NCBI RefSeq assembly: GCF_963506605.1
Contig: NC_083283.1
Location: 83,824,001 to 83,888,000, forward strand
Origin: Zootoca vivipara
Lineage: Eukaryota
DNA length: 64,000 nt
Reading direction: 5' to 3'
A program made the position numbers and the translations under genes. The notes under the pieces are model-generated. The model did not search any database. It saw nothing but the letters and a program-made list of their open reading frames with translations, and was not told where the DNA came from. Positions 5,781-42,994 of the stretch are shown here, one piece after another (positions within the stretch are counted from its first letter, which is position 1; every line of letters starts with the position of its first letter).

Positions 5781-5911
5781 AGACACTGATGCTTCAAACT
5801 CTGAGCATCACTATCACAATAGCAGTCATACTCAGTAGTGTGAGGCTGATTTAATGGCTACAATTACATATGATAAAAGTTCCCAAATGTTCCTCAGAAT
5901 GTATTACTCAC

Positions 5912-8281
5912 CTGCGCTGATGAATCACCAAGCATTTGTTCCTGTTTCTCACTGCCTTGCAGAGGAGGAATGTTGGGGCTGAAAACCATGAGGTCACTTT
6001 TGATGCCAGCTTCACCACTCACACCTGCCAGGATATGGCTATGACGATTTGAATATGACCAGCTACCCACTTCACTGGCACATACGAGGGTGGCTGTGCC
6101 AGGGCCATATATCATAGCCTCCTTTGCCTGGGACTGGCATCGCAGGACAATGTATATTATGATTGCAAGCAGAAACAAGCTGGACACTGAGCAGATGGCA
6201 ATGATTAGGTAGATGTTGGCACTGCCCACAAGAGGCTTTGGGTTACCTCCTGTTCTTGGAAGGTGAACATCAGTACGGGTGAGCTGGGTGCTTGCCACCA
6301 GTGTCACGCTTAATGTAGCAGTAGCTGACAACATTGGATTCCCGTGGTCCTTCACCAAGACCAGCAGATTCTGGCTACTACCACTAACCTCTCCCTCATC
6401 AAGGACACGTGTAGTGCTGATCTCTCCACTGTACTGCCCAACTCGCCAAGGACCACTAGTCCCTTCATGCATTTCATACCGTAGCCATGCATTGTAGCCT
6501 GAGTCAGCATCCAGGGCTTGTATTTTCCCCACTATATGCCCGGCCATCACAGGGATCACTAGCAGAACTGGGTTTTCTTCTGCCATCCCAGACACTGCAG
6601 GTGCATTGTCATTCTCATCCACCACAAAAACCTGAATAGTCACATTGCCACATAAGGAGGGCAGCCCAGCATCCTTGGCCTTCACTTGGAACTCCAGCAG
6701 CTTCACCTCCTCATAATCCAAGGGCTGCAATGCATAGACCTTCCCACTCTCTGAGTGCACCGAGATGTAGCTTGTCAGGGGCCACAGCTTCTCATCGATC
6801 CAGTAGCTGACCAGCGCATTCTCAGCCACATCTGGATCTGAGGCAGACACAGTGAAGATGTGAGCACCAGGTGGGTTGTTCTCCTTCACAAAGACTGTGT
6901 AAGATGGCTGTGCAAAAGTGGGTGCATTGTCATTCACATCACCAATGGGCACCACCAGGCTGCTGGTGACTGAGAGCGATGGAGTCCCTTGGTCTTGAGC
7001 TGTTACAAGCAGCTTGTATTCAGCCACTTGCTCCCGGTCCAGAGGCTCAGACACTACCAGAGAGTAGTAATTCTTGAAGGTGGACACCAACTTGAAGGGA
7101 AGTTCAGGGGGGTGCAGGAAGCAGCTTATTTGTCCATTGGCCCCAGAATCCTGATCTGAGACACTGATCAGGGCCACCACCATTCCAGGCAGGGAATCCT
7201 CTGGCACTGGCACCAGGAGAGATTTTAATGACATCTCAGGGGCATTGTCATTGACATCTAGCACTTCAACCACAACACTGCAATATCCTGTCATTGGATT
7301 GCTCCCTTTGTCGCTAGCTTGTACCTGAATCTCATATTGGTGGTTTTCCTCAAAGTCTAATTTTCCTTTTGTTCTTATTTCCCCATTAACAGAATCTAAA
7401 GCAAATATATTTTTTAATTTAACAGGCACACGGTTCTGAAATGAGTATGTAATCTCCTTATTGATTCCCTCATCCATATCTGTGGCATTCAATCTGACCA
7501 CTAATGTCCCACTTAGAACATCCTCTGTCATTTGGACTTTATAAACTGACTGATTAAAGGCAGGTGCATTGTCATTTTCATCAAGAACGGAAATCACCAG
7601 CTGTGCTGTGCCACTGAGCTCTGGCTTCCCCCCGTCGATGGCTGTGAGCAGCAAACGATGCTTAGCTCTCACCTCTCTGTCTAGAGGGGTTTTTAAAAGG
7701 AGTGCTAGTGATTGACTTTCATCATGTTTCCTCTGAACATCTAGACTAAAGTATTCACTGGGGCTGAGTGTATAGGTGAGGTGAGAATTTGGACCGATAT
7801 CTGCATCAGAAGCTCCCTCCAGAGGGAAAAATGATCCAGGCATTCTCATTTCTGAAATAAAGACATTTTGTTCTATTTGAGGAAATGTAGGAGGATTGTC
7901 ATTTATGTCCTTGATCTCCACCTCAATATGAAAGACCCTCAGAGGCTTATCCACAATCACCTCCAGGTGAATGGCACACAAAGGGCTTTTGCCACACAGC
8001 TCCTCCCTGTCTATTCGAGAGTTAACAAACAAAATCCCATTCTGAACATTTACCTCTAAATAGTCCCCTTGGCTTTGAGACTCCATCCGGAACATCCGAG
8101 GCACCAGCTCATCCACCTCCAGTCCCAGATCCTGGGCAATGCGGCCCACAAAGGTGCCATGCTGGGATTCTTCAGGCACAGAATAATGGAGCTGGCCGCT
8201 CCCTCTCTCCCAAGCCATGCAGATGAAAAACAGCTGCAGCAGCTGCCTTCTCACCAAGCAGCATCGGAGCAAAACAACCAT
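5912..8281 (-). CDS. PCDHA: Protocadherin-alpha variable exon (790 codons)
   Basis: Six cadherin repeats (DRE, DxNDNAP, AxDxG), alpha-type [22 protein letters not shown] and GSWSYS...DLMVFSP; phase-0 donor CAG|GTGAGT at 5912/5911. Confidence 0.97.
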
Positions 8282-8468
8282 AGCAATGGTAGGTCTTATT
8301 CCTGGTTTTTAAAAATTAAATCCACTCTTGTGATGGCATTAAAGGCTGGGAAACAGTCAGTTGTTACGCTGTTGTAGCCATTCTGTCCTCTGATGGTCTC
8401 TGTTCTTTCTGAATTGCTGGGAGGGGCTTTGATAATTGCATCAAAAGAGTGTTTTGATTTTCAGTGGA

Positions 8469-10220: not shown

Positions 10221-11143
10221 AAGAATGGGTAACAAAAAAACGATGCTCTTGCAAAAACTACCTTTGCAAATATTTTCAGGATTACTTTCTATCTTGTTCT
10301 TATCACACTGGAATCTTGAAGCTCAGGTCGTAATACATATGGTTGTATCACCTGTATCATACAGATTAGGCTGAATGATAATGAGTGGGCCTAGGCTACC
10401 TTGTGCAATTTGTGGCTGAATGGACATCTGGCCCCCTCTTCTAAGATTGTTGCTGTTATGCCATCATCATGATCCTACCCAATAGTAGGTCCCGCCAAAT
10501 AGTTTGTAAGGTGTCGGTAATGACTAGTTGTTAATGCAGCATATCCCTTGAAAACTTGACCAGAGTTTATAGAAAAGTCAGGGATTTCCACAGTAATAGC
10601 AATTTGAAACACATGCATGTCAGAGCTGCCTAGAGACTAGGGTACATCATAGAATACCAAGCTTCCTACACCGTTTCCTGCAACTCTGCATCACAATTAA
10701 AGAGAGTTAAGCCTTCATATCCAAAATACCTTCTCCTCAGGGAAAGCTTCAAACAGCTAGGACGTCAACTTGACAGATTCCATCACTTCTCAAAGTAAGG
10801 GAAGAGTGAATTCCACCCCCACACATTCTACTGCACTGTAATATTATCACTGGAGGCCCATCAAATATTGTAAGCATGAAATGAATTTTATACTTTTTTA
10901 TACATTTTATACTTCTATACTTTTTTATTGTAAGCAAAATTGTACCTGTCTTGAGCCTGGGTGGAAGGACAGGCAAGAAATTCAATTAAGAAAGAGAACA
11001 GGTAAATATCTATAAGTGCACAGATCAATTAAGCCCCATTGTCTCTCTATATGGTGTCCTACAGTATAATGCCATGTATTCAAACCAGAAAGGAATACAA
11101 GAGCATCAGTTACAAGGATTCTTAAGGCTTCCATATGACTCAC

Positions 11144-13501
11144 CTCTCCAGATAAATTTGGAACAAGCTCCTTTGCATTTCCTACTCCTGTGTTCACAGC
11201 AAAGACAGGAATATTGGGACTGAAAACCATGAGGTCATTCTTGGTACCAGCTTCCCCAGCCACACATCCCAGGTTGCGACTATGACGTTGTGAATATGAC
11301 CAGCTACCCACTTCACTGGCGCACACTAGTGTGGCTGTGCCAGGACCATACCTGGCACCGTCCTCGAGCTGAGACTGGCATCGCAGAGCCACATACACAA
11401 CGATGGCAAGCAGGAACAAGCTGGACACTGAGCAGATGGCAATGATCAGGTAAATGTTTGTAGTGTCCACCAGGGGCGTTAGGCTCCCTCCCATTCTGGA
11501 GAGGTGGGCATCAGCTTGAGCAGCCTGGGTACTTGCTACCAGGGAAATACTCAACGTAGCTGTGGTTGACAGTACAGGCTTGCCATGGTCCTTCACCAGC
11601 ACCAACAGAAGCATGCTATTGCCTACCCCTTCTGTCTCATCCAGTGCATGTGTAGTACTAATCTCACCACTGTACAGTCCCACATGCCAGGAGCTACTAC
11701 TTCCTTCATGCAGCTCATAGTGCAACCAGGCATTGTAGCCTGAGTCAGCATCCAGGGCACGGATCTTGCCCACCATGTGTCCTGCAGTAACAGGAACTAC
11801 CAGCAGGATGGGGGCCTCTGCTGCCTTAGAAACTTCAGGTGCATTATCATTCTCATCCACCACAAAGACTTGCACCGTCACATTGCCACACAGGGAGGGC
11901 AGCCCAGCATCCTTGGCCCTCACTTGGAACTCCAGCAGCTTCACCTCTTCATAATCCAAGGGCTGAAGAGCATAGAGCTTCCCACTTTCTGAGTGTACCG
12001 AGATGTAGCTCGACAGGGGCCAGAGCTTCTCATCCAGCCAGTAGCTGACCAGGGCGTTTTCAGCCACATCTGGGTCTGAGGCAGACACGGTGAAGATGTG
12101 AGCACCCGGTGGGTTGTTCTCCTTCACAAAGACCGTGTAGGAGGGCTGAGGGAAAGCAGGTGCATTGTCATTCACATCACCGATGGGCACCACAAGGCTG
12201 CTGCTAGCTGACAGTGATGGAGTCCCTTGGTCTTGGACTGTCACCACCAGCCTGTATTCAGCCACCTCCTCGCGGTCCAGGGATTCAGCCAGCACCAGTG
12301 AGTAGTAATTCTTAAAGGTGGATATCAGCCTGAAGGGAAGTCCATGTGGCCACAGGGAGCAACTAACTTGAGCATTGATGCCTGCATCGCTGTCCGATAT
12401 ACTCATCAGGGCCACCACTGTCCCCAGTGGGGAGTCCTCTGGCACCGGCACAGACATGGATGTCACAGACAGTTCTGGAGCATTGTCATTCACATCCAAA
12501 ACCTGGATCAGAACTTTGCAGTGTCCGACCAAAGAGTAGGACCCTTGATCAGCAGCTTCCACTTGCAATTCAAATAAGTTAATATCTTCAAAGTCTATCT
12601 TTCCTTTGGTTTTGATTTCACCGGTGTTGGAATCTATGGAAAAAGACTGCCTTAAATGGGCAGGCATCATATTGCTAAATGAATACAGTATTTCTTTATT
12701 CGTTCCTTCATCCAAGTCATAAGCAGCCAAAGTGATGACTGGTGTTCCCTCTGTGACGTTTTCCAGCAGATGCACCTCATACACAGACTGGTTAAACATT
12801 GGTACATTATCATTTACATCTAGTACAGTTATCTTCAGCTGCACCGAACCAGTTAGCTCTGGTTGTCCCCCATCAGTGGCAGTAAGTAATAAATGATGTA
12901 CAGAGATTTTTTCTCGATCCAGGGCATTGTATAGCACGAGTGCTAAAGATTTACTGAGATCTCCATGCTTTTCTTCACGTAGCTGAAAATAATCATTTGG
13001 ACTAAGGATGTAGGTAAGCAGACCATTTGAACCAATATCGGCATCTGAAGCTCCCTCTAGTGGAAAATAGGAGCCCAGCAGCCTAGATTCCAAAATAAAT
13101 AGCTGGTGTTCATTTACTGGGAAAATGGGGGCATTGTCATTTATGTCCCTGATCTCCACCTCCGCATGGAAGATCCTGAGAGGCTTGTCCACAATCATCT
13201 CTAGATGAATGATGCAAATGGGACTCTGAGCACACAGCTGCTCCCTGTCAATTCGGGAATTCACAAACAAAACACCATTCTGAACATTTACCTCAAAATA
13301 GTCCTCCTGTCCTTTGGAAACCATCCGGAACATCCGAGGCACCAGCTCCTCCACCTCCAGCCCCAGGTCCTGGGCAATGCGGCCCACAAAGGTGCCATGC
13401 TGGGATTCTTCAGGCACAGAATAATGGAGCTGGCCGCTCCCCATCAACCAGACTGTGGGAAGCAAAATCAGCTGCAGCATCTGCCTTCTCCCCGTCTCCA
13501 T
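11144..13501 (-). CDS. PCDHA: Protocadherin-alpha variable exon (786 codons)
   Basis: Same architecture; donor GAG|GTGAGT at 11144/11143. The ORF-track tail beyond the donor is intronic read-through. Confidence 0.97.
13050..13063 (-). promoter_or_regulatory. Exonic CTCF site (eCBS) in the EC2 FPLEGA codons
   Basis: CCACTAGAGGGAGC, a close match to the CTCF core at the position of the mammalian Pcdha eCBS. Confidence 0.7.
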
Positions 13502-13731
13502 TGAGCTGTGGTTTCTTAGAATGATGGCCAGAATGTGAGGTTTCCTGATGCTATGAATTCATCCTTTGGTTAATGAAAATTGCTCTTGAAAAGGTGGAAT
13601 CTGCTTTGTTCTGTTATATTTTGATGGTATCTGGGGTTTTCCTCCGGATTCTTGCGTCAAATCATTTGCTTTCCATCTGAGGGCAGGGCAGCAAATCTCC
13701 TTAGGTTTCCTTGAAGAGATTTTGTAGGCAA

Positions 13732-17444: not shown

Positions 17445-17665
17445 TCTTGCAAATAACCAAGTACAAATCAAGGATCATTTGAAAGGTGTTGCTTTCTGAC
17501 CAAATACAAGTACAAAATCCCTTACCAATATTTGGAATATCAGTGGCATACTTCTTAAGGGGGTTCATATGGACCTTCGAAACATTAAAATGGAAATAAA
17601 ATGTATTTCTGTTATTGCACAAATGTTGTGAACAAACTATATGAATTAAAAGAGGGATTACTAAC

Positions 17666-20029
17666 CATTGCACAGAGCAGATCCTGCTGCTTTCCATTTT
17701 CTGCATAAGCAGGTATGTTGGGGGTGAAAACCATGAGGTCGCTTTTGCCATTGGAGTCTCCCGTGACGCCCCCTAAGATGTGACTGTGACGGTTTGAATA
17801 GGACCAGCTTCCCACCTCACTGGCACACACCAGCGTGGCTGTTCCAGGACCATACACCACAGCCTCCTTAGGCTGGCAATGGCACCGCAGGGCCATATAT
17901 GCAATGATGGCCAGCAGGAACAAGCTGGACACTGCACAGATGGCTATGATGAGGTAGGTGTTGATGTTCTCCGCCAGGGGACTGGGGCTCCCTCCCCTTC
18001 TGGGAAGCCGGGCATCAGCTGGGAGGGCCTGGACACTGGCCACCAACGAAATACTCAGCATGGCGGTGGCTGACAAAGCAGGCTTCCCATGGTCCTTCAC
18101 CACAACCAGCAAACTATGACTGCTGCTGCCCTCTGCCTCCTCCAGGGCACGTGCTGTACTGATCTCACCACTGTACAGTCCCACCCGCCAAAGCCTACTG
18201 GACCCCTCATGCATCTCATAGCGCAGCCATGCGTTGTAGCCAGAGTCAGCATCCAGGGCACGAATCTTGCCCACCACATGCCCAGCTGTCAGGGGGACCA
18301 CCAGCAGGCTGGGAGCCTCCTCTACTGGTACAGTCACAGCTGGCGCATTGTCGTTCTCATCCACCACAAAGACTTGCACCGTCACATTGCCACACAGGGA
18401 GGGCAGCCCAGCATCCTTGGCCCTCACTTGGAACTCCAGCAGCTTCACCTCCTCGTAGTCCAAGGGCTGAAGAGCATAGAGCTTCCCACTTTCTGAGTGC
18501 ACCGAGATGTAGCTCGACAGGGGCCAGAGCTTCTCATCCAGCCAGTAGCTGATCAGGCTGTTCTCAGCCACATCTGGGTCCGAGGCAGACACTGTGAAGA
18601 TGTGGGCACCGGGTGGGTTGTTCTCCTTCACAAAGACCGTGTAGGAAGTCTGAGCAAAAGTAGGAGCGTTGTCGTTCACATCGCCAATGGGTACCACCAG
18701 GGTGCTGCTGGTTGACAGCGATGGAGTCCCTTGATCCTGGGCAGTCACTACCAGCTTGTATTCTGCTTCCCGCTCCCGGTCCAAGGGCTCAGCCACCACC
18801 AGAGAGTAGTAATTCTTGAAAGTGGACAATAGCTTGAAGGGTAGGTGGGAGGGTGTCACAGAGCAGCTCACTTGCCCGTTAGCCCCAGAGTCCCTGTCTG
18901 AGATGCTGATCAGAGCCACCACTGTCCCTGGTGGGGAGTCCTCTGCAACTGGCACAGATAGAGACTTCAGTGACATCTCAGGGCTATTGTCATTCACATC
19001 CAAAACCTTAATGAGAACCTTGCAATGTCCAGACAAAGGATAACCACCTTTATCTGTTGCTTCAATTTGAATATCATATGTTGTACTCTCTTCAAAATCC
19101 ACAGCTCCTTTCACTCTAAGTTCTCCATTATTAGGATCTATGCTAAACATTTCCTTTATACTGGGAGCAACAAGGTTGCTAAGTGAATAGGAAATCTCTT
19201 TATTAATCCCCTCGTCCAAATCGCTTGCCTCCAATTTAATAACTAATGTTCCCCTTGCAGAGTTTTCCAATAATTCAGTTTTGTAAACTGATTGGTTAAA
19301 GGCAGGTGCATTGTCATTGACATCGACCACAGTGATTGTCAGCAGGACTGTGCCTGTGAGTGATGGCTGCCCACTATCTGATGCTGAAAGCAGCAGCTGA
19401 TGCTCTGCGGATGCTTCACGATCCAGTGGTCTTTTTAATGTCAGAACCAAAGACTTGCTGTGCTCATAATTCTTTATCTCTTCCACAGAAAAATATTCAT
19501 TGGGGCTGAGCTTGTAGTTTACCTGGCCGTTGCTACCAATGTCTGCATCAGAAGCTTCTTCTATTGGGAAATGGGAACCTTGCACCCTCGATTCTAAGAC
19601 AGCTAAATTCTGCTCTCTGACTGAGAAAACGGGGGCATTGTCGTTTATGTCTGCAATCTCCACTTCCACATGGAAGACTGTCAGGGGTTTATCCACAATC
19701 ACCTCCAGGTGGATGGAGCACAAAGGGCTCTTGGCACACAGCTCCTCCCTGTCTATCCGAGAATTAACAAACAAAATCCCATTCTGCTCATTTACCTTGA
19801 AATAGTCCCCATCTCCTTGGGACTCCATCCGGAACATCCTAGGCATGAGCTCCTCCACCTCCAGCCCCAGATCCTGGGCAATGCGGCCCACAAAGGTGCC
19901 ATGCTGGGATTCTTCAGGCACGGAATAATGGAGCTGGCCGCTCCCCATCAACCAGACTGTGTGAAGCAAAATCAGCTGCAGCAGCTTCCTTCTTCCCATT
20001 GAAGAACAGTCTCCCCATGGAGCAACCAT
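17666..20029 (-). CDS. PCDHA: Protocadherin-alpha variable exon (788 codons)
   Basis: Full EC1-EC6/TM/VCD; phase-0 donor ATG|GTTAGT at 17666/17665. Confidence 0.97.
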
Positions 20030-20227
20030 CTCAAAAAAATTTCATTTATTTTATATATTATTTCATGTCACAGCTTTATAAAATATTTTTAAAAAAATAA
20101 ATTAATCCAGCTCCACAATCTCCATTTTGCTCATCCATCCATTTGCAAGCACGGAAAGATATCTGATGACAAAGAAGAGGAAGAGCCTTGTGTAGACCTT
20201 TTATTCTTAGCAAGATATTTAAGCAGA

Positions 20228-20245
20228 TAGCGACATCGTGCGACT
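20228..20245 (-). promoter_or_regulatory. CSE / promoter CTCF site
   Basis: Minus strand AGTCGCACGATGTCGCTA, ~200 bp upstream of the ATG, preceded by CTGTAC resembling the CTCF upstream motif. Confidence 0.85.
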
Positions 20246-22120: not shown

Positions 22121-23445
22121 TTCCTTAGAAATTGATCCTTCCTTTTGTCCTTTTGAAAGTATTTCCTGTGTTCCAGCTGGAAATTATTCATTTTCCATGA
22201 TGAGCCAAAGAATGGATGGGCATGTCTCAAGCCCTTGCACTTTCTCTTCCAGCAGCAATACCAGCTTGCACTTGCTGCAAGTTTTATACATCCTCAGACA
22301 GGAAAACAAACAAAGCACAAACATTGCATGTCAGCACAGCACCATGCTCACTGGCCATGTTCTGTGGCTCTCTGTGGTATTCCAGGATTCCCTTTCCAAC
22401 TTTTCCTTTAAAATCTCAATTAAAATTCTTCATTTGCTGATCCTGTTTGCTTTCTCTACATCATGATTAGTTCAGACTCCAAATGTGTCAGGAATGAATG
22501 GGTCATATTCAATGTTAGTCCTACTCAGAGTAGACCCATTAAATTATTAAGACATGGCTAACTTAGGTTCATTAATTCCAATTGGTCTATAGAGTAGGAC
22601 TTAGTTGAATTCAACCTACGGACTCTTCGTTTTGAACTGACCCCCGTGCTAGTTGGAATAACCTGTTTCACTGCTCATTGGTGCAGTGAGGAAGTGTTAT
22701 TTCTATCCAAACTCTCTATCTTTTTCAGCCCCTAAAAATGTCAACCTTTTATGTAGCCCGTTTACAGGTTTTGATGATTGAAAGGCACATAAATTCTGTT
22801 AAATAAAATATATAAAAAATTTGATGCACCAAATCAAACTCATTGTTTTTTGTTTGGGTGATAAGCAATTAATGATGGATGTCAAGTTCTCTATAGTTGT
22901 ACCTGATTTCATCATGAATGGCTGGAACTACAGGCCACAGAAGGCCAATTATTGCAGGGAAAGAGCATGACACTTTGCTATTCAGAACACCTTTGCACAC
23001 CACTCTTTGTATGGGGAAGAGGCAGGATCGTGCTGAATGTTTTTGCTAAATACAAAGCCAAGTTACTTTTTTTTTCATTGTATTTTAGTGTTCTAAGATG
23101 GAAGGGGTTGTTCTGCATGCCATTTTTCAGTCCCCTCCAACCCTGTGGTTTCATCACTGTAAGATAGGATTCTGTTTGGGTCAACAGAGGTCAAACCAGT
23201 CTCTTTGTTAAGTTGATGGCTCTAGCCAAGTCTGTTTTGTATCTCTTTGCAAGCATTTGGTTGCCACAGACACTACTAGCTAGAGGTGCTTCCAGAAGTG
23301 GGCTAAAGTGAGGCAGGCTTTCCCCCTCCTTCCCTGGCTGGAGCTGATGTCTTCTATGAGTGTAAAAAAACCAACATGCCTTGGCCAGTATCATCTGCAG
23401 GGAAGATGCAAAGTCCTGACTTGCTCTCTGTGCTCAATCCAAAAC

Positions 23446-23657
23446 CGTGAGGGAGCGAGGCAGATAATGGCGGGCGCCTCTCTGTGGAAAGGCCTGGTCG
23501 GCGTCGGACTCTTCGCCCTGGCGCACGCGGCCTTCTCCGCCGCACAGCGTGTGTGGCTCCGGCTTCCGCCTGCGGGCCCTGGGGGGGGCTCCTTCTGGGA
23601 AGGGCCGGGCAGGGGGTCCCAAGGGCCGCCGGCACTTCCCCACCTCACCTACCTAGA
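23446..23657 (+). pseudogene. MMGT1: Displaced fragment of MMGT1/EMC5: short 5' UTR, coding exon 1 and apparent start of intron 1
   Basis: The ATG at 23467 gives [27 protein letters not shown] (human MMGT1 begins [27 protein letters not shown]). Homology stops at CAG C|GTGTGT, followed by GC-rich non-coding sequence. Confidence 0.88.
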
Positions 23658-23750
23658 TTTGATGGTGTTTCCTGCTTGGCAGGGGGTTGGACTGGATGGC
23701 CCTTGTGGTCTCTTCCAGCTCTGGGATTCTATGATTCTATTATTCTATGA
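23658..23750 (+). mobile_element. CR1 extreme 3' end with ATTCTATG-type tail
   Basis: Near-identical to 14128-14203 and to the reverse complement of ~49527-49603. Confidence 0.9.
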
Positions 23751-23831
23751 CTAAGGGATGAGAAGGATCTGTTACAATGTTAATGCTGTGAGGTCTTCCA
23801 TGTTACGCTCAGCCAACATATAGGTGCAAAC

Positions 23832-24036
23832 CAGGCATGTCCAAAGTCCATTTTGGGGGCCTAATCCGGCCCGCTGGACGGTTTAATCCGGCCCCTGTGG
23901 CAGCTTATCTCTTGGGGTAAAATCCTTTTTAAAAAACTCAGCAACTTCAACCCTAAAAAAAAGCTCAACAAGTTCAATCCTTAAAAAAGGTCAACAACAA
24001 ATCTGGCCCTCTTTGAAAAAAGGTTGGACACCACTG
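23832..24036. mobile_element. hAT-type MITE
   Basis: caggcatgtccaa...ttggacaccactg termini with internal ccggccc subterminal motifs. Confidence 0.65.
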
Positions 24037-24651
24037 CACAGAACATTATATCACACAGCTGCCACCATCTCCACTTACCTTCATTCTGAGGAAACCAAGT
24101 ACAAGGTATGTGCTGGCACCCCTGAAATTTCTCGCCACTCAAACAGTGGATGTAACAATATTTATTCTAGGGTATCTAAAGTTCTTTGTTTTTTCGATGT
24201 AATCATTTATTAATGTTGATATTTCTGCATAGATAATGTCCATTGCTGCAACCAATTTAGTTGGTTTCAGAAGCCTTGCATCACCTTTTCTTCCTGCACA
24301 GGTAATAGTGGAACAAATTCCCACACCATGGAAATTTCTATGTTCCCCTTCCAGTTAATTTTCACCCACACCCTCCAGCACAATTACATCCGGTTGACCA
24401 CTGTTAATTGTTTTGTAGTTAGGAAGAATTATTTTACGTGATCAAGTGCATTACCTTCATATATTTCAAAATCTTTAGGCTTTAAAGGCATCAGAATATG
24501 GTACACGTCATAGACAAGTATAATGAATAAAAACAATGTTTAAAAAATTTCCACAAGCTGATCTGATATTTACATTATATGCATATTGTGGACATATTAA
24601 CGGAAAAACTGACCCTCCACAAAGGCAATTCTAAGAACATCAGAGACTCAC

Positions 24652-27027
24652 CTGAATAGAAGATTCTGGGACCAGCTCCTTTGTATTCCCTACCTGTCCA
24701 GTCTCTGCAAACACAGGTATGTTGGGGGTGAAAACCATGAGGTCGCTTTTGGCATTGGAGTCTCCCGTGACGCCCCCTAAGATGTGACTGTGACGATTTG
24801 AATAGGACCAGCTGCCCACCTCACTGGCACACACCAGCGTGGCTGTTCCAGGACCATACACCACAGCCTCCTTAGGCCGGCAATGGCACCGCAGGGCCAT
24901 ATATGCAATGATGGCCAGCAGGAACAAGCTGGACACTGCACAGATGGCTATGATGAGGTAGGTGTTGATGTTCTCCGCCAGGGGACTGGGGCTCCCTCCC
25001 CTTCTGGGAAGCCGGGCATCAGCTGGGAGGGCCTGGACACTGGCCACCAACGAAATACTCAGTGTGGCGGTGGCTGACAAAGCAGGCTTCCCATGGTCCT
25101 TCACCACAACCAGCAAACTATGACTGCTGCTGCCCTCTGCCTCCTCCAGGGCACGTGTTGTACTGATCTCACCACTGTACAGTCCCACCCGCCAAAGCCT
25201 ACTGGACCCCTCATGCATCTCATAGCGCAGCCATGCGTTGTAGCCAGAGTCAGCATCCAGGGCACGAATCTTGCCCACCACATGCCCAGCTGTCAGGGGG
25301 ACCACCAGCAGGCTGGGAGCCTCCTCTACTGGTACAGTCACAGCTGGCGCATTGTCGTTCTCATCCACCACAAAGACTTGCACCGTCACATTGCCACATA
25401 GGGAGGGCAGCCCAGCATCCTTGGCCCTCACTTGGAACTCCAGCAGCTTCACCTCCTCGTAGTCCAAGGGCTGAAGAGCATAGAGCTTCCCACTTTCTGA
25501 GTGCACCGAGATGTAGCTCGACAGGGGCCAGAGCTTCTCATCCAGCCAGTAGCTGATCAGGCTGTTCTCAGCCACATCGGGGTCCGAGGCAGACACCGTG
25601 AAGATGTGAGCACCGGGTGGGTTGTTCTCCTTCACAAAGACCGTGTAGGAAGACTGGGCAAAAGCAGGAGCGTTGTCGTTCACATCGCCAATGGGTACCA
25701 CCAGGGTGCTGCTGGTTGATAGCGATGGAGTCCCTTGATCCTGGGCAGTCACTACCAGCTTGTATTCTGCTTCCTGCTCCCGGTCCAAGGGCTCAGCCAC
25801 CACCAGAGAGTAGTAATTCTTGAAAGTGGACAATAGCTTGAAGGGCAGCTGGGAGGGTGTCACAGAGCAGCTCACTTTCCCGTTAGCCCCAGAGTCCCTG
25901 TCTGAGATGCTGATCAGAGCCACCACTGTCCCTGGTGGGGAGTCCTCTGCAACTGGCACAGATAGAGACTTCAGTGACATCTCAGGGCTATTGTCATTCA
26001 CATCCAAGACTTGTATCAAAAGTTTGCAGTCTCCTTCCATTGGTGCATGCCCCTTATCGGTGGCTTCTATTTGAATTTCATACAAATTAATTTCTTCAAA
26101 ATCTAGCTTTTCTTTTAACCTGATCTCCCCTGTATTCTGATCAATCTCAAACATAGTTTGAATAGTTGAAGGCAAAGGTCTTTTAAAGCGGTAAGTAATC
26201 TCCTTGTTAATGCCCTCATCAATATCTGTTGCTTCTAACTTTACAACAAGAGTCCCAATAGCTGAACTTTCTAGTATACTCACTTCATAAACTGACTGAT
26301 TAAAGACAGGTCTGTTATCATTAACATCCAGCACAGTTATCACCAGCTGTACTGTTCCTGTGAGTTCTGGTTGACCCCCGTCTGTTGCTGTAAGCAGTAA
26401 ATGGTGCAGAGAGATGTCCTCTCTGTCCAAAGTCCTTCTTAAAACAAGCTCTGGTAGAAGGCTTTTAGCTTGCTTATCCTGAGTGCCCAGAGAAAAGTAT
26501 TCATTTGAGCTGATACTGTATGCAATAAGGGCATTTTTACCAATGTCTGCATCTGAAGCACTTTGTAGAGAGAAGCGAGAACCATATGCTGTCGATTCTG
26601 ATATAAAAAGATTTAATATATTTACAGAGAAAGTGGGGGCATTGTCATTTATATCCTTGATTTCCACCTCTACGTGGAAGACCCTCAAAGGTTTGTCCAC
26701 AATCACCTCCAGGTGAACAGCACACAAAGGGCTCTTGCCACACAGCTCCTCCCTGTCTATCCGGGAGTTAACAAACAAAATGCCATTCTGAACATTTACC
26801 TCAAAATAGTTCCTATGATCTGCAGACTCCATCCTGAACATCCGAGGCACCAGCTCATCCATCTCCAGCCCCAGATCCTGGGCAATACGGCCCACAAAGG
26901 TGCCATGCTGGGATTCCTCCGGCACAGAATAATGGAGCTGGCCGCTCCCCAATTCCCAGGCTGTGTGGAGAAGAACCAGCTGCAACAGCCTCCGCCTCAC
27001 CAAGGAGCCTAGTTTCCAAACATCCAT
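24652..27027 (-). CDS. PCDHA: Protocadherin-alpha variable exon (792 codons)
   Basis: Full architecture; donor CAG|GTGAGT at 24652/24651. Confidence 0.97.
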
Positions 27028-27239
27028 TTTTAAAAATGCATCCGGAGCACAGAGGAATACACACAGTCTTGTTCCTTTCAGGAGTACAAATAAGATAGAA
27101 ATTGACGTGTGTCTACCTTAAATGTTCATTTCTGTTCCTATGCTGAGCAGTCATGATGGTTAATTTACTTGCCGCAGATCTCTGCACAAAGGAAGGAGGA
27201 GCTGACTTTTCCAGTCCTCTGACACTATTTTTTACCAAA

Positions 27240-27257
27240 CAGCGACACCGTGTGATT
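27240..27257 (-). promoter_or_regulatory. CSE / promoter CTCF site
   Basis: Minus strand AATCACACGGTGTCGCTG, ~215 bp upstream of the ATG. Confidence 0.85.
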
Positions 27258-29939: not shown

Positions 29940-30786
29940 AAAAGCAGGATCAGCTGGACACAGTATGTGAGAGACAACCTTCCAAGACAGAGAACGTGGC
30001 ATGGTATCTGTGTCAGAGGAGGTAGTTGCACTGCTCTCTCCGGGTTAGATCTTATATTTGTGTGGCACACGTATTTCCATTTTTCATTCATTACTTGTCA
30101 ACCCACACCAAAATATTTGCATAACGTTTGAATCCATCAGTACACTATCAATTTACAAATAATATTCAGAAAGATGACTCTTCAATCTAAAGTTGCAATT
30201 TCACAAGCCTTTTTTCCAAAAACCTTTTCAAAGAGTTATCATCAGCATCAATTATTTCAAGAGGATGATGTGATTGCCTTATTCATGACATCAGGAGGTT
30301 TCCTTGTGTGTTTGGCAGGGGGGGAGGTTAAAACAAGAAGGGGAATTAAAACTCAATTCTCCCTCACTATGTTATTGGTCAGGTAGAATGCTCATGCACT
30401 GAGGAAATACCAAAAGTCATTCTCACAATACAACAGAAAATGATTTTTTTTCTTTTCTTTTTGCTATTCTGTTAGGCCATGAAAAAGAGTCTGATACTGT
30501 TCCATCTGAAGGGGGCCAAAGATAAAAACCAGATTCATGAAAATCTCGTAAAGGAAGTCTTATGCTGCTTCCATACCTCTTATTGTAGTGCATAAATGTT
30601 TGTATCATTGCTTTTAGACCAAAAGAGAAGCCCAAAAGATATTATAAACCATTAGAATCCACTAAAATGTCTTGGGCGGAACTGGTAATTATTTACTGTA
30701 TTTTAAAAATAAAACAGATGAAAATTATTTACACAAACATCATAACACAAATATGCATAATAAAATAGTTCAGAAAGGGCACTAAC

Positions 30787-33144
30787 CGTGGCACAGAGCA
30801 GATCCTGCTGCTTCCCATTCTCCACAATGGAAGGAATACCAGGACTGAAAACCATCAGATCATTTTTGGCACCAGGCTCCCCGCTTGCAGCTGCCAGGAT
30901 GTGGCTGTGGCGATTGGAATAGGACCAGCTGCCCACCTCACTGGCACAAACCAGTGTGGCTGTGCCAGGGCCATACACCACGGGCTCCTTGGGTTGACAC
31001 TGACACCGCAGAGCCATGTATACTATAATCACAAGCAGGAACAAGCTGGATACTGAGCAGATAGCAACTATCAGGTAGATGTTGACATTGTCCACCAGTG
31101 GCTTTGGACTCCCTCCCATTCTAGGAAGGTGAGCATCCCTATGGATTACCTGAGTGCTTGCCACAAATGACACACTCAATGTGGCTGTAGTGGACAGTGC
31201 TGGCTTGCCGTGATCCTTCACAAGCACTAGCACACTCTGGCTGCTGCTGCTGCCCTCCATCTCATCCAGGGCTCGTGTTGTACTAATCTCACCGCTGTAC
31301 AGTCCCACACGCCAAGGGCCTCTGGTTGCCTCATGCAGTTCATAGCGCAGCCATGCATTGTAGCCTGAGTCAGCATCCAGGGCATGGACCTTGCCCACCA
31401 CATGTCCAGCCAAGACAGGGGCTACCAGCAGAGCAAGGGACACCTCTTCTGGCCTCGATACCGCAGGCACATTGTCATTCTCATCCACCACAAAAACTTG
31501 TATTGTGACGTTGCCACATAAAGGGGGGAATCCAGCATCCTTGGCTCTCACCTGGAACTCCAGCAGCTTCACTTCCTCATAGTCCAAGGGTTGCAAAGCA
31601 TAGACCTTCCCACTCTCTGAGTGCACTGAGATGTAGCTTGACAATGACCAAAGCTTCTCATCCAGCCAGTAGCTGACAAGGGCATTCTCACCTATGTCTG
31701 GGTCTAAGGTGGACACTGTGAAGATGTGAGCACCTGGTGGGTTGTTCTCCTTCACAAAGACCGTGTAGGAGGGCTGAGGAAAAGTAGGTGCATTGTCATT
31801 CACATCACCGATGGGCACCACAAGGCTGCTGCTAGCTGACAGTGATGGAGTCCCTTGGTCTTGGACTGTCACCACCAGCCTGTATTCAGCCACCTCTTCA
31901 CGGTCCAGGGATTCAGCCAGCACCAGTGAGTAGTAATTCTTAAAGGTAGATACCAGCTTGAAAGGAAGCACCATAGGCCACAGAGAGCAGGTCACTTGCC
32001 CATTGACCCCAGCATCCCTGTCGGAGATACTGATTGAGGCTGCAATTGTCCCCAGTGAAGAATCCTCTGGAACTGGTACCAACAGGAACGTCACTGACAC
32101 CTCTGGAATATTATCATTCACATCCAGAATTCCTATTAAAACCTTGCAGTGTCCAGACAAGGGGTAACCACCTTTATCTGTTGCTTCTGCTCGAATTTCA
32201 TACGAATTAGTGTCCTCATAATCCAATTCATTATTCAGTAAAATTTGTCCAGTATTTGGATCTATCCTAAACATGGTACTTGATTTAGCTGGGATTACAC
32301 TACGAATAGAGTATGTAATGTCTCTATTGATGCCATCATCCAAATCAGTGGCATTGAGCTTAACCACTGATGACCCAATGGAAGCATTTTCTAACATTTG
32401 TACCTTGTACACTGACTGGTTAAAGACAGGAGGGTTATCATTCACATCAACCACTGTGATCACCAGCTGAACTGTTCCTGTTAGCACAGGTTGGCCACCG
32501 TCCGTTGCTGTGAGCAGTAAGCGATGCACAGAAATATCTTCTCTGTCTAATGGCTTTGTTATTACAAAGCCCAAGGAATTATCCTCATTGCTCCTTCGAA
32601 AATCTAACATGAAATGTTCACTGGGGCTGAGGTGGTAAGTTAACTGTGCATTTGTACCAACATCAGCATCTAAGGCTCCCTCTAGAGGGAAAATGGATCC
32701 TGCAAGTCTTGATTCAAGAATGGACAGATTTTCCTCACTTGCTGAGAAAACAGGGGCATTGTCGTTTATGTCTGCAATCTCTACTTCCACATGGAAGATC
32801 CTCAGGGGGTTATCCACAATCACCTCCAGGTGAATGGCACATACAGGGTTCTTGATACAAAGCTCCTCCCTGTCCATCCTAGAATTCACAAACAAGATTC
32901 CATTTTGCACATTTACCTCTAAATAATCCTTGTGCTCTTTGGAAACTATCCTGAACATCCGAGGCACCAGCTCACTCACCTCCAGCCCCAGGTCCTGGGC
33001 AATGCGGCCCACAAAGGTGCCATGCTGGGATTCCTCCGGCACAGAATAATGGAGCTGGCCGCTCCCCATTTCCCAGGCTGTGTGAAGAAGGACCAACTGC
33101 AGCAGCTGTTTCCTCACCGAGTAGTCTCTCCAAGGAACAACCAT
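30787..33144 (-). CDS. PCDHA: Protocadherin-alpha variable exon (786 codons)
   Basis: Full architecture; donor ACG|GTTAGT at 30787/30786. Confidence 0.97.
32675..32688 (-). promoter_or_regulatory. Exonic CTCF site (eCBS)
   Basis: CCTCTAGAGGGAGC in the FPLEGA codons. Confidence 0.65.
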
Positions 33145-33314
33145 CTCAAATATATTCCTTTGAATCCCCCTCAGTTACGTACAATATTGGAGGGGGTGTT
33201 ATTCCAGCTTGCTATTATCCTTTGTGCTCCTTCACTTTTGGTGCTGCCTATTTTCTGATGACAGCAAGGAGGAGGAGCTCTCCTATGAGCCTGCAAGAGG
33301 CATTTAACAGTAAA

Positions 33315-33332: not shown

Positions 33333-35197
33333 AAATTTAAAAATGCAATTCTTGCAATATTTGTTTGGGCTTTTTTTTGTTTTCTGGTGTTCTTTATTCT
33401 TCTAGTGTTCTTATGCTTCTTTAAATGTATGTGAAGATAGTCATATTTATCATTGTAAGCATTTGACATAAGATTTGTGTGTATGTGGATATATAATTAC
33501 TCCTGTGTGGCAGCAGTTTTTTAGGATCGCATTCCTGCCTTTGAGAATTTCCATTCTTAAAAGTTTATGTTGTACAAATGTGGGTATGTTTTCATTCATG
33601 TTAAAGAAAGATGATTCACTTTAACAGTGGGGAAGAAAGTGGGGGTAGAGATGAAAGAAAAATGGGAAATGTGAGAAAGAGAAGCACTATGGTCATGATA
33701 GACCAAGTGGAACATTGTTACATTCCAAAAAGATAATAGCATGAGAGCCAATAATCACAGGCTCCCCAAACTACTGAAGACGATACAGTGGGTGTACCTT
33801 TTCTTCACTGTTCTTATTTACATACTTTTGTGCCATACTGCTTCTGAGCACAAATGATTCTATGATTCTATCTTTTCCTTTATTCTTCAGGTGGATACAC
33901 TAACAGTATGAGAACACACTTTATTTGTGCATTATGCGGCGTCCCATTTGGGTATGTGCTGTGTCAAGAATCTGTATAATATACAAATAAGATTCATGGA
34001 TCTAAGATCTCTTGTGAACGGAGATATCCCTCCTGTTTGTGTTTCACTGTTTTAGACCATGCAAATGATATGCTAAAGGCTAGTAATTTGAATTGCTACC
34101 TCTTGAATGGTGTGCTAATGAATTTGTTGCTGTTTTCATTCTGTTTGCTCTGCCAGTGTCTGGCCTGGGCTTCAAGAACAGTAAAACGTAATTGTGGTTG
34201 CCAGTTTGTGAGTGATGTGGTTGAGCATGTTCAGACATTGATGTTATCACATATTGCTTTGTTCTGGTTTTGGGGATCTGCACATATCCATTGGCAGAAG
34301 AGCTTTGCTTTTCTCCTACAACCATGTAAAGATCCTTCAGCCTTCTCATTCATGCTTTGCTGCTCCATAGGCTAAAGTTCCTTCTTTGTCTTCCATGTGA
34401 TGGCAAGGGGCAACCACTGATGTGCGTGAACACAACCCTGTGTTTGAAAGTAGTTTGACTTTGATTCATCCCAGGAAACATCTTAGATCCACAACCAAGT
34501 CAAGAAATCATTTGAGAATTTGCTTGCTAATGAATTTGTCAGTCAGTTCTAATCTCAGAAAGATTTTTAAAATCAAGTTTAGGGGTGGTAGGTTCTTCAG
34601 TCTTGGGAGAGTCCTGGATGCCTTTTGCTTGCCTACCTGCCTGCTTGCACAACATGCTATTGCAAAGAAGTTTGCTTATGGTACTTCCTACATATCTTCC
34701 ATAGCGCTGGGTATTCATCTTGAGTTAGACGCTATGAGGCACATCTCTTGCAAACATGGAGAGTTTGTGTGTTTAATGAGAATGTTGCTATTGCCTTCTT
34801 GCATGATTTGCATAATTACTACAATATTATTTCAAACAGCAATGCTGCCCAATATCTTTAAATCTCTTTTCCTGATCAAAGCCCATGGCATTCTGCAAAG
34901 CTCAGTGTATTCTTTGATTTCCTGGTCAGAGCTCAAAATATTCTGCATGACTATATATTCAAGTAACATGTTTTATAATAAGCAGAAATTATTCCATCAA
35001 GTTGTGTTCTGTGCTGGAATTCCCTGACCCATGTGGCTAATTTATAACCAAGGCTATATATTACTCTTCTACCACCAAGAGAATGAACAAACAGATTAAA
35101 CATTGAAATCATGCTATTATATCCAAGTGAGTATTTGAAACATACTCCCAAGACAGGTACATCACAGGACAAACTGAAATGAATAATAGAGACTCAC

Positions 35198-37567
35198 CTG
35201 CCCAGATGAATTAGGGACCACCTCCGTCATAATCCCTACATCCCCATTCTCTGCAAAGAAAGGAATGTTGGGGCTGAAAACCATGAGATCACTTTTGGCT
35301 CCAGCCTCTCCACTCATTCCTGCCAAAATGTGGCTATGGCGATTTGAGTAAGACCAACTGCCCACTTCGCTTGCACACACCAGCGTGGCTGTGCCGGGAC
35401 CATACGCCATGGTCTCCTCTGCTTGCCTCTGGAATCGCTGAGCCACATATAAGATGACTGCAAGCAGGAACAAGCTGGACACTGAGCAGATGGCAATGAT
35501 TAGGTAGATGTTGACCTTGTCCACCAGGGGTCCTGAACTACCTCCCATCCTGGGAAGATGGACATCATCATGGAACATCTGGGTGTTTGCCACCAAGGAC
35601 ACACTCAATGTAGTTGTAACGGATCGCGGTGGCTTCCCATGGTCCTTCACCAACACCAGCAAACTATGGCTGCTGCTGCCCTCTACATCATTCAGGGCAC
35701 GTCTGGTACTTATCTCACCACTGTACAGTCCCACTTGCCAGGGTCCACTGGTCAATTCATGCAGCTCATAGCGTAGCCATGCATTGTAGCCTGAGTCAGC
35801 ATCTAGGGCATGGATCTTGCTCACTAAGTGGCCAGCCATGACAGGGATCGCCAGCTTGACAGGGGCCTCCCCTTGTCCAGATACTGTTGGGTCGTTGTCA
35901 TTGTCATCCACCACAAACACCTGCACTGTCACATTGCTGCACAAAGAGGGCAGCCCAGCATCCTTGGCTCTCACCTGGAATTCCAGCAACTTCATCTCCT
36001 CATAGTCTAAGGACTGCAGTGCATAGATCTTGCCGCTTTCTGAGTGCACCGAGATGTAGCTTGACAGAGACCAGAGCTTCTCATCAAGCCAATAGCTGAC
36101 TAGGGCGTTCTCAGCCATGTCTGGATCTGAGGCAGACATTGTAAAGATATGGGCACCAGGTGGATTATTCTCCTTCACAAAGACTGTATAGAATGGCTGA
36201 GCAAAAGCAGGTGCATTGTCATTCACATCACTAATGGGCACCACTAGGCTGCTACTTGCTGATAGTGAGGGAGCCCCTTGATCCTGGGCCACAACCACCA
36301 GTCCATACTCAGCCACCTGCTCTCGATCCACAAGTTCAGCTAGCACTAGTGAGTAGTAATTTTTGAAGGTGGGCACCAGCTTGAATGGAAGCCCAGTGGG
36401 CCACAGAAAGCAGCTCACTTGCCCATTGGATCCGGAATCCCTGTCTGAGATGCTGATCAGGGCTACCACTGCCCCTGGCGAGGAGTCTTCAGGCAATGGC
36501 ACTAGCATGGACTTCAATGACATCTCGGGAGCATTGTCATTTACATCTAAAATTTCAATAAGGATAGTGCAGTGCCCAGACAAAGGTGGGCTACCTCCAT
36601 CTTTTGCCTCAATTTCAACATTATACATATTAATATCTTCAAAATCCACTTTCCCTTTTACCCTGATCTCACCTGTATCCGACTGTATACTAAATATATT
36701 GGAAGGAACATTATTACTGAAGGAGTAGGTGATTTCCTTATTACTTCCTTCATCTAAGTCTGTTGCATTGAGATGAATAACCAATGTTCCATCTGCCACA
36801 TTTTCTAACAATTTCACTTTATAAACAGATTGGTTAAATACAGGTGCATTGTCATTTGCATCCATCACAGTGATCTCAAGATGGACTGTGCCTGTGAGTT
36901 CTGGTTGACCCCCATCAGTAGCTGTTAGCACTAAATGGTGCACAGGGATTTTCTCTCTGTCCAGAGGTTTATTTAAAACAAGTACCAATGACACACTCTG
37001 CTGGTCATTTATTTTTTCTTCAACAACAAAATATTCTGTGGAATTAAGCTTGTACTTGAGTTGAGCATTAACACCAACATCTGCATCCGAGGCTCCCTTC
37101 AGAGGAAAACGTGTACCAGGCAACATTAATTCTGCAACACTGAGGGACTGTTTACTTTCCAAGAAAACAGGAGAATTGTCATTTATGTCCTTGATTTCCA
37201 CCTCTACATGGAAGACCCTCAGAGGCTTGTCCACAATCACCTCCAGGTGAACAGGGCACAAAGGGCTCTTGTTACACAGCACCTCCCTGTCTATCCGGGA
37301 ATTAACAAATAAAATCCCATTCTGGACATTTACCTCAAAAGAGTCCCCATGATCTTCAGACTCCATCCGGAACATACGAGGCATGAGCTCCTCCACCTCC
37401 AGCCCCAGATCCTGGGCAATGCGGCCCACGAAGGTGCCATGCTGGGATTCTTCAGGCACGGAATAATGGAGCTGGCCGCTCCCCATCAACCAGACTGTGT
37501 GAAGCAAAATCAGCTGCAGCAGCTTCCTTCTCCCCACTGAGGAAGAGTCTCCCCATAGAGCAACCAT
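35198..37567 (-). CDS. PCDHA: Protocadherin-alpha variable exon (790 codons); most 5' intact alpha exon in the window
   Basis: Full architecture; donor CAG|GTGAGT at 35198/35197; no further intact exon seen in the 26 kb upstream. Confidence 0.97.
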
Positions 37568-37761
37568 CTCAGAAATATTTCATATAACTCCCCTCTTTTA
37601 TGAAATATCTCTGGGGGGGGGACATTGAAAGAATCTAAATCCAGCCTGCTGATATACCTTTTCTTCCTCCAATTATAAGAACGGGAATGATCTCTGGTGA
37701 TGACAAAGCAGTGGAAGAGCCTTTTGTTCCCCTTTCATTCGCAGCAAGTTACTTAAGCAGA

Positions 37762-42192: not shown

Positions 42193-42433
42193 CAGTGGTA
42201 CCTTGGTTTACAAACTTAATCCGTTCCAGAAGTCCGTTCTTAAACCAAAGCCGTTCTTAAACCGAGGCGTGCTTTCCCTAATGAGGCCTCCCGTCGTCGT
42301 TGCCCTTCCACTGTTCAGCTTCCGTTCGTAGACCAAGGTAAAGTTCGCTAACCGGGACACTACTTCTGGTTTTGCGGAGTTCGTATACCGAATAGTTCGT
42401 AAACAGGGCTGTTCTTAAACCAAGGTACCACTG
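42193..42433. mobile_element. Tc1/mariner MITE
   Basis: TIR cagtggtaccttggttta / taaaccaaggtaccactg with TA on both sides. Confidence 0.92.
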
Positions 42434-42606
42434 TAAAGCTATTTTTTCTCCCTCTCCCATAATGCTGAAACTCAGGCTTGCCCAGTGCCATAGCTTGAAG
42501 AAGGTGGAGGAAGGGATACTTTCCAAACAATTCATAATTTATGAAATTATGAAATTTATGACATTTGCTGCGAGATGCGATATTGGCCACTTGAAGCTGG
42601 GTTATA

Positions 42607-42853
42607 CAGTGGACACTCGGGTTGCGAACATGATCTGATGCAGTTTCGCAACCCACAGCGTTCGCAACCCACGTCTGCACACACACGGGTCACGATCCAG
42701 CGCTTCTGCGCATGCACAAAGCATGATTTAGTGCTCCTGCGCATGCGCAAGCGCCGAAACCCGGAAGTAACACGTTCGGGTACTTCCGGGTTCGGCGCAG
42801 GATGCAACCTGAAAAGACACAACCTGAAGCGTCTGTAACTCGAGGTATGACTG
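42607..42853. mobile_element. Tc1/mariner MITE
   Basis: Imperfect TIR cagtggacactcgggtt / aactcgaggtatgactg with TA flanks. Confidence 0.8.
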
Positions 42854-42994
42854 TACTTAAGGAGATATTGCACAGTTAATTCACAGAGGCTAAATTAGCT
42901 TAAAAAGAAAGGATAGTGACTAGGTTGCTCAGGTGTTGGCAGATGTGCAATGGCAGCCATTTTACATAAACCACAGGATTATATTAACTTCAGT

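Follow-up and report, generated by a model that had tools for sequence, protein, structure and literature searches.

The window, by which we mean the whole 64,000-nucleotide stretch of the Zootoca vivipara genome that was analysed (NC_083283.1, positions 83,824,001 to 83,888,000), contains six minus-strand frames at 5894-8308, 10982-13558, 17612-20041, 24640-27117, 30703-33174 and 35162-37579, each with a CSE-like core 130-194 bases past its 5' end. Between two of these single-exon cadherins, which are clustered protocadherin exons, lies a plus-strand insert at 23446-23750, composed of the beginning of the MMGT1 gene and the end of a CR1 element. On one side of it is a clustered protocadherin variable exon (17612-20041, minus strand), whose CSE-like core at 20235 lies behind the insert at a distance of 3211 bases. 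On the other side is a Pcdh-alpha-type variable exon (24640-27117, minus strand) with the donor CAG/GTGAGT at 24651 and a CSE-like core at 27247, and the insert sits antisense in the intron of this exon. The one flank tested, the frame at 24643-27027, had Pcdha7 as its best PDB match, which upholds the placement of the insert, in antisense, within the Pcdha cluster. The two frames that were translated are near-identical in their C-terminal halves, as expected from gene conversion.

The insert begins with 20 bases of MMGT1 5' leader (23447-23466), and parental homology starts at the first of these, as it does in an LTR-element capture described below. Coding exon 1 of MMGT1/EMC5 follows at 23467-23548 (27 codons plus 1 base), and its 27-residue translation matched MMGT1/EMC5 in a PDB search (E 1.6e-9); a Pfam search with the same 27 residues gave no match. 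Parental exon 1 likewise comprises 82 coding bases, and splicing at the same point yields intact proteins of 134 and 133 aa. The donor reads GTGTGT in the insert versus GTGAGT in both parents. Next come 109 GC-rich bases from MMGT1 intron 1 (23549-23657), which bear two deletions and a changed patch, and then the 3' tail of a CR1 (23658-23750), oriented like the MMGT1 piece. A preliminary description made from the letters of the window had read this composition correctly: its 27 intact codons ending at a donor-like GTGTGT are supported by the translation, the PDB match and the parental splice point, its roughly 110 bp of GC-rich sequence are the 109 intron-derived bases, and its last ~90 bp of a young CR1 in the same orientation are those at 23658-23750. 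Comparison of 23446-23657 with the genome, which it had proposed as a check, returned MMGT1 exon 1 and intron 1, the intron with the two deletions and the changed patch.

The CpGs of the insert had also been called dense and undecayed, and the first of these terms stands. Across 211 bases the insert has 19 CpGs (o/e 0.70); the 1 kb to its left has 5 (o/e 0.12), and 944 non-exonic 211-base intervals have a mean of 2.3 and a maximum of 20. The second term is nearly right: 12 of 14 parental CpGs are retained in the exon part, and the three changes that separate this part from one of the parents (C19, see below) all fall at CpGs, with none elsewhere in 102 columns. The only non-exonic spots in the window as CpG-dense as the insert are 42193-42436 and 42606-42856. 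These are two CpG-rich short elements, probably small DNA transposons, whose inverted ends resemble each other (CAGT...ACTG).

Two parental MMGT1 loci were found in the genome, on contigs C19 and C18, and no third copy was found. The regions compared, C19:45125001-45185000 (L011-L016) and C18:2960001-3020000 (L017-L022), are colinear over 60 kb at roughly 85-95% identity per block. MMGT1 is intact in both; over the first 109 codons the two copies differ synonymously at 9 codons and non-synonymously at 5, and intron 1 measures 7.7 kb in C18 versus 2.5 kb in C19. C18 is 9.3 Mb long and carries 2 of the 19 copies of the LTR element discussed below. None of 60 short frames beside MMGT1 had a Pfam match. 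MMGT1 lies on the human X chromosome. Given this location, a lizard genome and the gene content of lacertid Z chromosomes, which bear genes of chicken 4p and human X (PMC6534595), C19 and C18 may be Z and W copies in a young Z/W stratum.

In both parents exon, intron and CR1 are contiguous, and the insert corresponds to one contiguous stretch of this locus. An older, 5'-truncated CR1 tail lies in sense orientation about 155-160 bases into intron 1 of both, the junction between intron and CR1 is identical in the insert and the two parents, and a 25-base pattern spanning it occurs at exactly three places in the genome, namely the insert, C19 and C18. This bears directly on the origin of the chimera, which had been attributed to a CR1 reverse transcriptase that switched template at this junction onto nascent MMGT1 RNA and so created it in the present event. 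Nothing beyond the chimeric look of the insert speaks for such a switch, and it is refuted by the presence of the same junction at both parental loci, which leaves it a negligible probability. The same claim also held that exon 1 of MMGT1 was copied together with the beginning of the intron, and this part stands, the two being contiguous in both parents. The 339 bases that precede the start base in the parents were found at the two parents only, and a (CG)n run lies just upstream of the parental start base. CR1 fragments are dense in both regions, with 51 and 43 matches to the tail in the respective 60 kb. Directly behind the transduced tail, tandem and inverted pieces of CR1 tail form a palindrome in both parental introns (L003:1786-2298, L002:1242-1513).

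The intron part of the insert departs from its parents in several ways. At the altered intron start (23549-23581), which includes the change from GTGAGT to GTGTGT at the donor, 7 of 30 aligned columns carry private changes and bases have been deleted; these first 33 intron bases differ from both parents, and the patch is unique in the genome. The following stretch (23582-23657) runs up to the parental intron/CR1 junction. Between two GGGCCGC repeats it is short of 27 bases that the parents have, a deletion that coincides with a predicted hairpin in the parent, and further parental bases are missing upstream of this gap. A genome-wide search at 2 mismatches found no second template for the 33-base patch, and comparison of the patch with the parents' vicinity (500 bases of the parental start), the flanks and the rest of the insert gave no match above shuffles. 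Nor is the insert exactly equal to either parent elsewhere, as it carries C19 alleles at some sites and C18 alleles at others. The template was either an allele absent from the assembly or a structured GC-rich RNA that was miscopied. Tandem donor-like sites on the minus strand, TAG/GTAGGT and TAG/GTGAGG (23643-23652), are present in the parents near the CR1 junction as well.

Positions 22800-24900 of the window were compared with contigs from three DNA runs and with the reads of a single RNA run (X21). The DNA runs came from another sample with the same species label (X7), from another, related organism (X17) and from a third organism (X12). In X7 and X17, one contig each bridges an empty allele, passing from 23445 to 23751 via 21 other bases, and the X12 flank contig likewise departs from the window sequence at 23445. 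These contigs across the site delimit a young insertion of 305 bases, 23446-23750, which replaced about 21 target bases. The limits agree to the base with those of the preliminary description, the empty site that it had suggested seeking in relatives or other individuals is the one bridged in X7 and X17, and its term young is supported by the empty allele under the same species label and by the few changes from C19 in the exon part. The GC-rich part is uncovered in X7, even from the parent gene, so that this sample shows an empty allele to exist and may carry a filled one as well; the insertion is probably polymorphic.

No direct repeat of at least 3 bases was found within 6 bases of both ends, in line with the earlier statement that there is no TSD, and the replacement of 21 target bases explains its absence. 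The insertion site (23445-23751) is therefore best described as a target-site deletion. A single C at 23446 aligns neither with the flank of the empty site nor with the parents, both of which have T, and it is possibly an additional 5' nucleotide or a source-allele difference. No paralogous empty site was found inside the window. The contigs of X7, X17 and X12 agree against the window at 24515, 24612, 24620, 24657 and 24664 (within 24264-24664); since all three DNA runs differ from the window at these sites, the insert-bearing haplotype has private changes of its own.

Filled junctions were seen in none of the runs examined, the DNA runs showing the empty site or stopping at it, as would be the case if MMGT1 reads had been mis-joined into the Pcdha contig during assembly. 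A mis-join would copy a parental allele, however, and the private features described above, which occur nowhere else in the genome, speak against one, as do the CpG-type decay, the lengthened tail and the loss of 21 target bases; we consider an artefact very improbable. Words specific to the insert make up 14.7% of the stretch, and one further run has 0.87 of the sampled words, which is no more than suggestive evidence against an artefact.

The 3' end of the insert coincides with a structural landmark of CR1 elements. After the 5'-truncated tail inherited from the parental intron (23658-23725, plus strand), the insert closes with the CR1 terminal octamer repeat, motif ATTCTRTG (PMC8665684), in three units plus an A (23726-23750, plus strand), at a point beyond which a second CR1 piece follows in the parents. 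C19 has one unit and C18 two, and by a rough count three units occur in 3 of 90 tails of the loci examined. A hairpin together with the ATTCTRTG repeat is the proposed recognition site of CR1 (PMC8665684). Hairpins were predicted in the tail, with a fold stability no better than that of shuffled sequences (z -1.06 and -0.20).

The insert tail is 94-96% like other young CR1 tails. It carries at 23718 a G that is found in only 4 of 90 other tails, the C19 parent among them, and this rare shared base argues that the tail is a copy of the parental one rather than of a random CR1, at least as far as 23718. Near the 3' end, neither parent shares the T of the insert at 23706 (present in 31 of 95 other tails) or its G at 23723 (present in 7 of 90). 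These two positions would be accounted for if reverse transcription had begun on the RNA of an autonomous CR1 and had switched by homology onto MMGT1 pre-mRNA inside the shared tail. The preference of LINE proteins for their own RNA, which is stated for L1 (PMC3747384), also speaks for such a switch. The G shared with C19 confines any such switch to the last ~30 bases, and we regard it as distinctly unlikely.

The 5' end of the insert is equally sharp, with 18 of 20 bases identical to the parent downstream of it and 4-5 of 20 upstream, and the MMGT1 upstream promoter was left uncopied. The genome has 19 other, exon-only matches to MMGT1, and those examined are copies of an LTR element that carries spliced MMGT1 mRNA. 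In all seven of the copies examined in this respect (of 19), homology begins at the very base at which the insert starts, with 14-16 of 20 bases identical downstream and 0-3 of 20 upstream. Because the seven stem from one capture, they count as a single independent reverse-transcription event. Even so, two independent copies that stop at one base point to an RNA 5' end or a strong reverse-transcription stop there, either of which implies an RNA template. In X21, about 20 reads cover exon 1, but their starts do not pile up at 23447, and the intron part at 23581-23651 has none.

The LTR element is itself young, about 5.4-5.7 kb in length, and is present at 19 places in the genome (L004-L010, L023-L028). 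Its MMGT1 piece comprises the first 214-221 bases of the spliced mRNA at 66-69% identity, and in all six copies examined for it this piece closes an open frame of 314-323 codons. Pfam Gag_p10 was detected in both of the frames scanned, along with a weak match to MMgT. The LTR pairs are 97.9-100% alike in five of six copies, and a second LTR was not found in L026. This has the appearance of an in-frame transduction joining gag and MMGT1 that the whole family has retained. We found no literature on MMGT1 in a retrovirus, within a search whose coverage of subscription papers was limited.

From these two ends and the contiguity of the parental locus, we consider it likely that the insert is a 5' transduction, for which the reverse transcriptase of a CR1 used the intronic CR1 tail to copy MMGT1 RNA in trans before splicing. 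The 5' sequence of the insert is, as in other such transductions, the contiguous upstream flank of the source element itself, and of the marks of a CR1 TPRT insertion it has the 3' end at the octamer and lacks the TSD. The origin from an unspliced transcript advanced in the preliminary description is thus retained as the best reading, both ends lying on landmarks of RNA or reverse transcription. Its statement that a CR1 piece already present in the parental intron would indicate a DNA-level copy is half right: the CR1 is there in both parents, but the inference does not follow, since both ends of the insert fall on such landmarks. In the sequence of events that we envisage, RNA polymerase II would supply the RNA from the MMGT1 promoter, the ORF2p of an active CR1 would recognise the tail hairpin and the octamer repeat, and priming within the repeat, where the Pcdha cluster had been nicked, would lengthen the repeat. 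Synthesis would then proceed as far as the 5' end of the RNA, or be halted at that base by a strong stop, and the two intron deletions would reflect either structured GC-rich RNA that was skipped or an unsampled allele. Precedents exist for parts of this scheme: the ORF2p of stringent LINEs binds the 3' stem-loop of its own RNA (PMC4176376), and SINEs use LINE tails in trans (PMC3747384).

Several observations weigh against copying from RNA by CR1. There is no TSD, and X21 shows neither a sharp TSS nor intron-retaining reads. Around the first tail no poly(A) signal was detected, neither within ~480 bases behind it in C19 nor in C18, so that an RNA end or priming at this point lacks an explanation. 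The tail folds no better than shuffles, the insert equals neither parent exactly, and filled junctions are absent from the reads. CR1/L2 inserts mostly have TSDs of 3-5 bp, and target-site truncation, seen in 8 of 30 ZfL2-1 inserts in HeLa, is a minority outcome for the L2 clade (PMC4245944). The target deletion also counts against this reading in that it is no less compatible with break repair. The Pcdha cluster might have suffered a double-strand break that was patched from the open MMGT1 CpG island, by end joining or by microhomology-mediated template switching and with no RNA involved, and this would suit the 21-base target deletion without TSD, the retained intron, and the internal deletions at short repeats and scrambled 33-base patch that are typical of error-prone repair synthesis. 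Against repair of this kind, both ends fall on RNA landmarks (a lengthened CR1 repeat and the start base of an independent mRNA capture), no promoter DNA was brought along, and no second template for the patch was found in the genome at 2 mismatches or within 500 bases of the parental start. We therefore judge a DNA-level templated insertion unlikely.

As to consequences for the host locus, the preliminary description had pictured a piece of a CpG-island promoter region with a splice donor, placed antisense ~3.2 kb from a CSE. The distance is right (3211 bases), whereas the promoter was not copied and the donor is weakened. Any RNA begun in the insert would lead away from the CSE at 20235 and arrive at the one at 27247 after 3.5 kb. 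Mammalian antisense RNA is initiated within each variable exon, and only the nearest promoter is activated by it (10.1101/360206). By the definition drawn from that work, a Pcdha antisense (eCBS-type) promoter starts in a variable exon next to a CTCF site and reads through its cognate promoter; the insert, by contrast, lies in an intron, has no promoter and is directed away from the CSE at 20235. The proposal that it could bias isoform choice accordingly finds no support, the donor being weakened as well. On the Pcdha strand the insert adds donor-like sites at 23652 and 23648, about 1 kb behind the perfect native donor at 24651. X21 has no reads on the Pcdha flanks and is thus silent on any effect or on expression of the insert. 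By default we take the effect on Pcdha to be neutral, and the insert is probably a promoterless, dead-on-arrival, neutral 5' transduction.

In many reptiles and birds the predominant LINE is CR1. We found no report of CR1 copying a host pre-mRNA via an intronic tail, in a search with limited coverage of subscription papers. Reviews regard CR1 as a weak producer of retrocopies, its recognition of the CR1 tail limiting the copying of host RNA (PMC5470649, PMC3136929), and the present case, in which source loci, empty site and both ends are resolved, points to a route round this limit whereby a sense CR1 tail in one of its introns makes a host gene a substrate. Copies made in this way keep introns and would be missed by standard retrocopy screens; the intron-loss screen described in PMC3136929, for instance, drops candidates with retained introns. 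It is conceivable, and we put it forward tentatively, that intronic CR1 tails, though dead, generally serve CR1 as a handle for copying unspliced transcripts from their 5' ends, CpG islands included. A further step, in which in addition the segregating allele would be unmethylated, or would fire weakly in antisense towards the 27247 CSE, and would shift Pcdha choice between carriers and non-carriers, seems decidedly improbable. With an empty allele under the same species label, the insert also offers a natural test of the effect of an orphan CpG-island fragment on Pcdha promoter choice.

Among known chimeric retrocopies, those of the U6/L1 template-switch type have a new junction between their parts, and the junction found here was already present in C19 and C18. 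The insert resembles a processed pseudogene in that host exon sequence was copied to a new site without a promoter (PMC5470649, PMC3136929), but it keeps the start of intron 1, has no poly(A) or A tract and ends in a CR1 tail; the earlier verdict that it is not an ordinary processed pseudogene stands on the retained intron and the missing A tract. With stringent-type SINEs that have LINE tails it shares a head of cellular RNA joined to a CR1 tail by which it was probably mobilised (PMC3747384, PMC4176376), although the head is a protein-coding pre-mRNA whose promoter was left behind, there is no Pol III internal promoter, and the insert, unlike a SINE family, is single copy besides the two parents. 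Human SVA elements are moved by L1 via a poly(A) tail and have TSDs, whereas the handle here is a ~90-base CR1 tail with an octamer repeat, and the insert has neither poly(A) nor TSD and retains the copied intron unspliced. The 5' transductions of SVA (LINC02916, UQCRC1; PMC12593883, PMC3287187) include read-through into an intron that ends at the 3' end of the element (PMC12593883). As in those transductions, a host promoter would drive a transcript into an intron, where it ends at an intronic retroelement and is retroposed in trans with a host exon at its 5' side, and as with those of SVA the resulting insertion is probably polymorphic.
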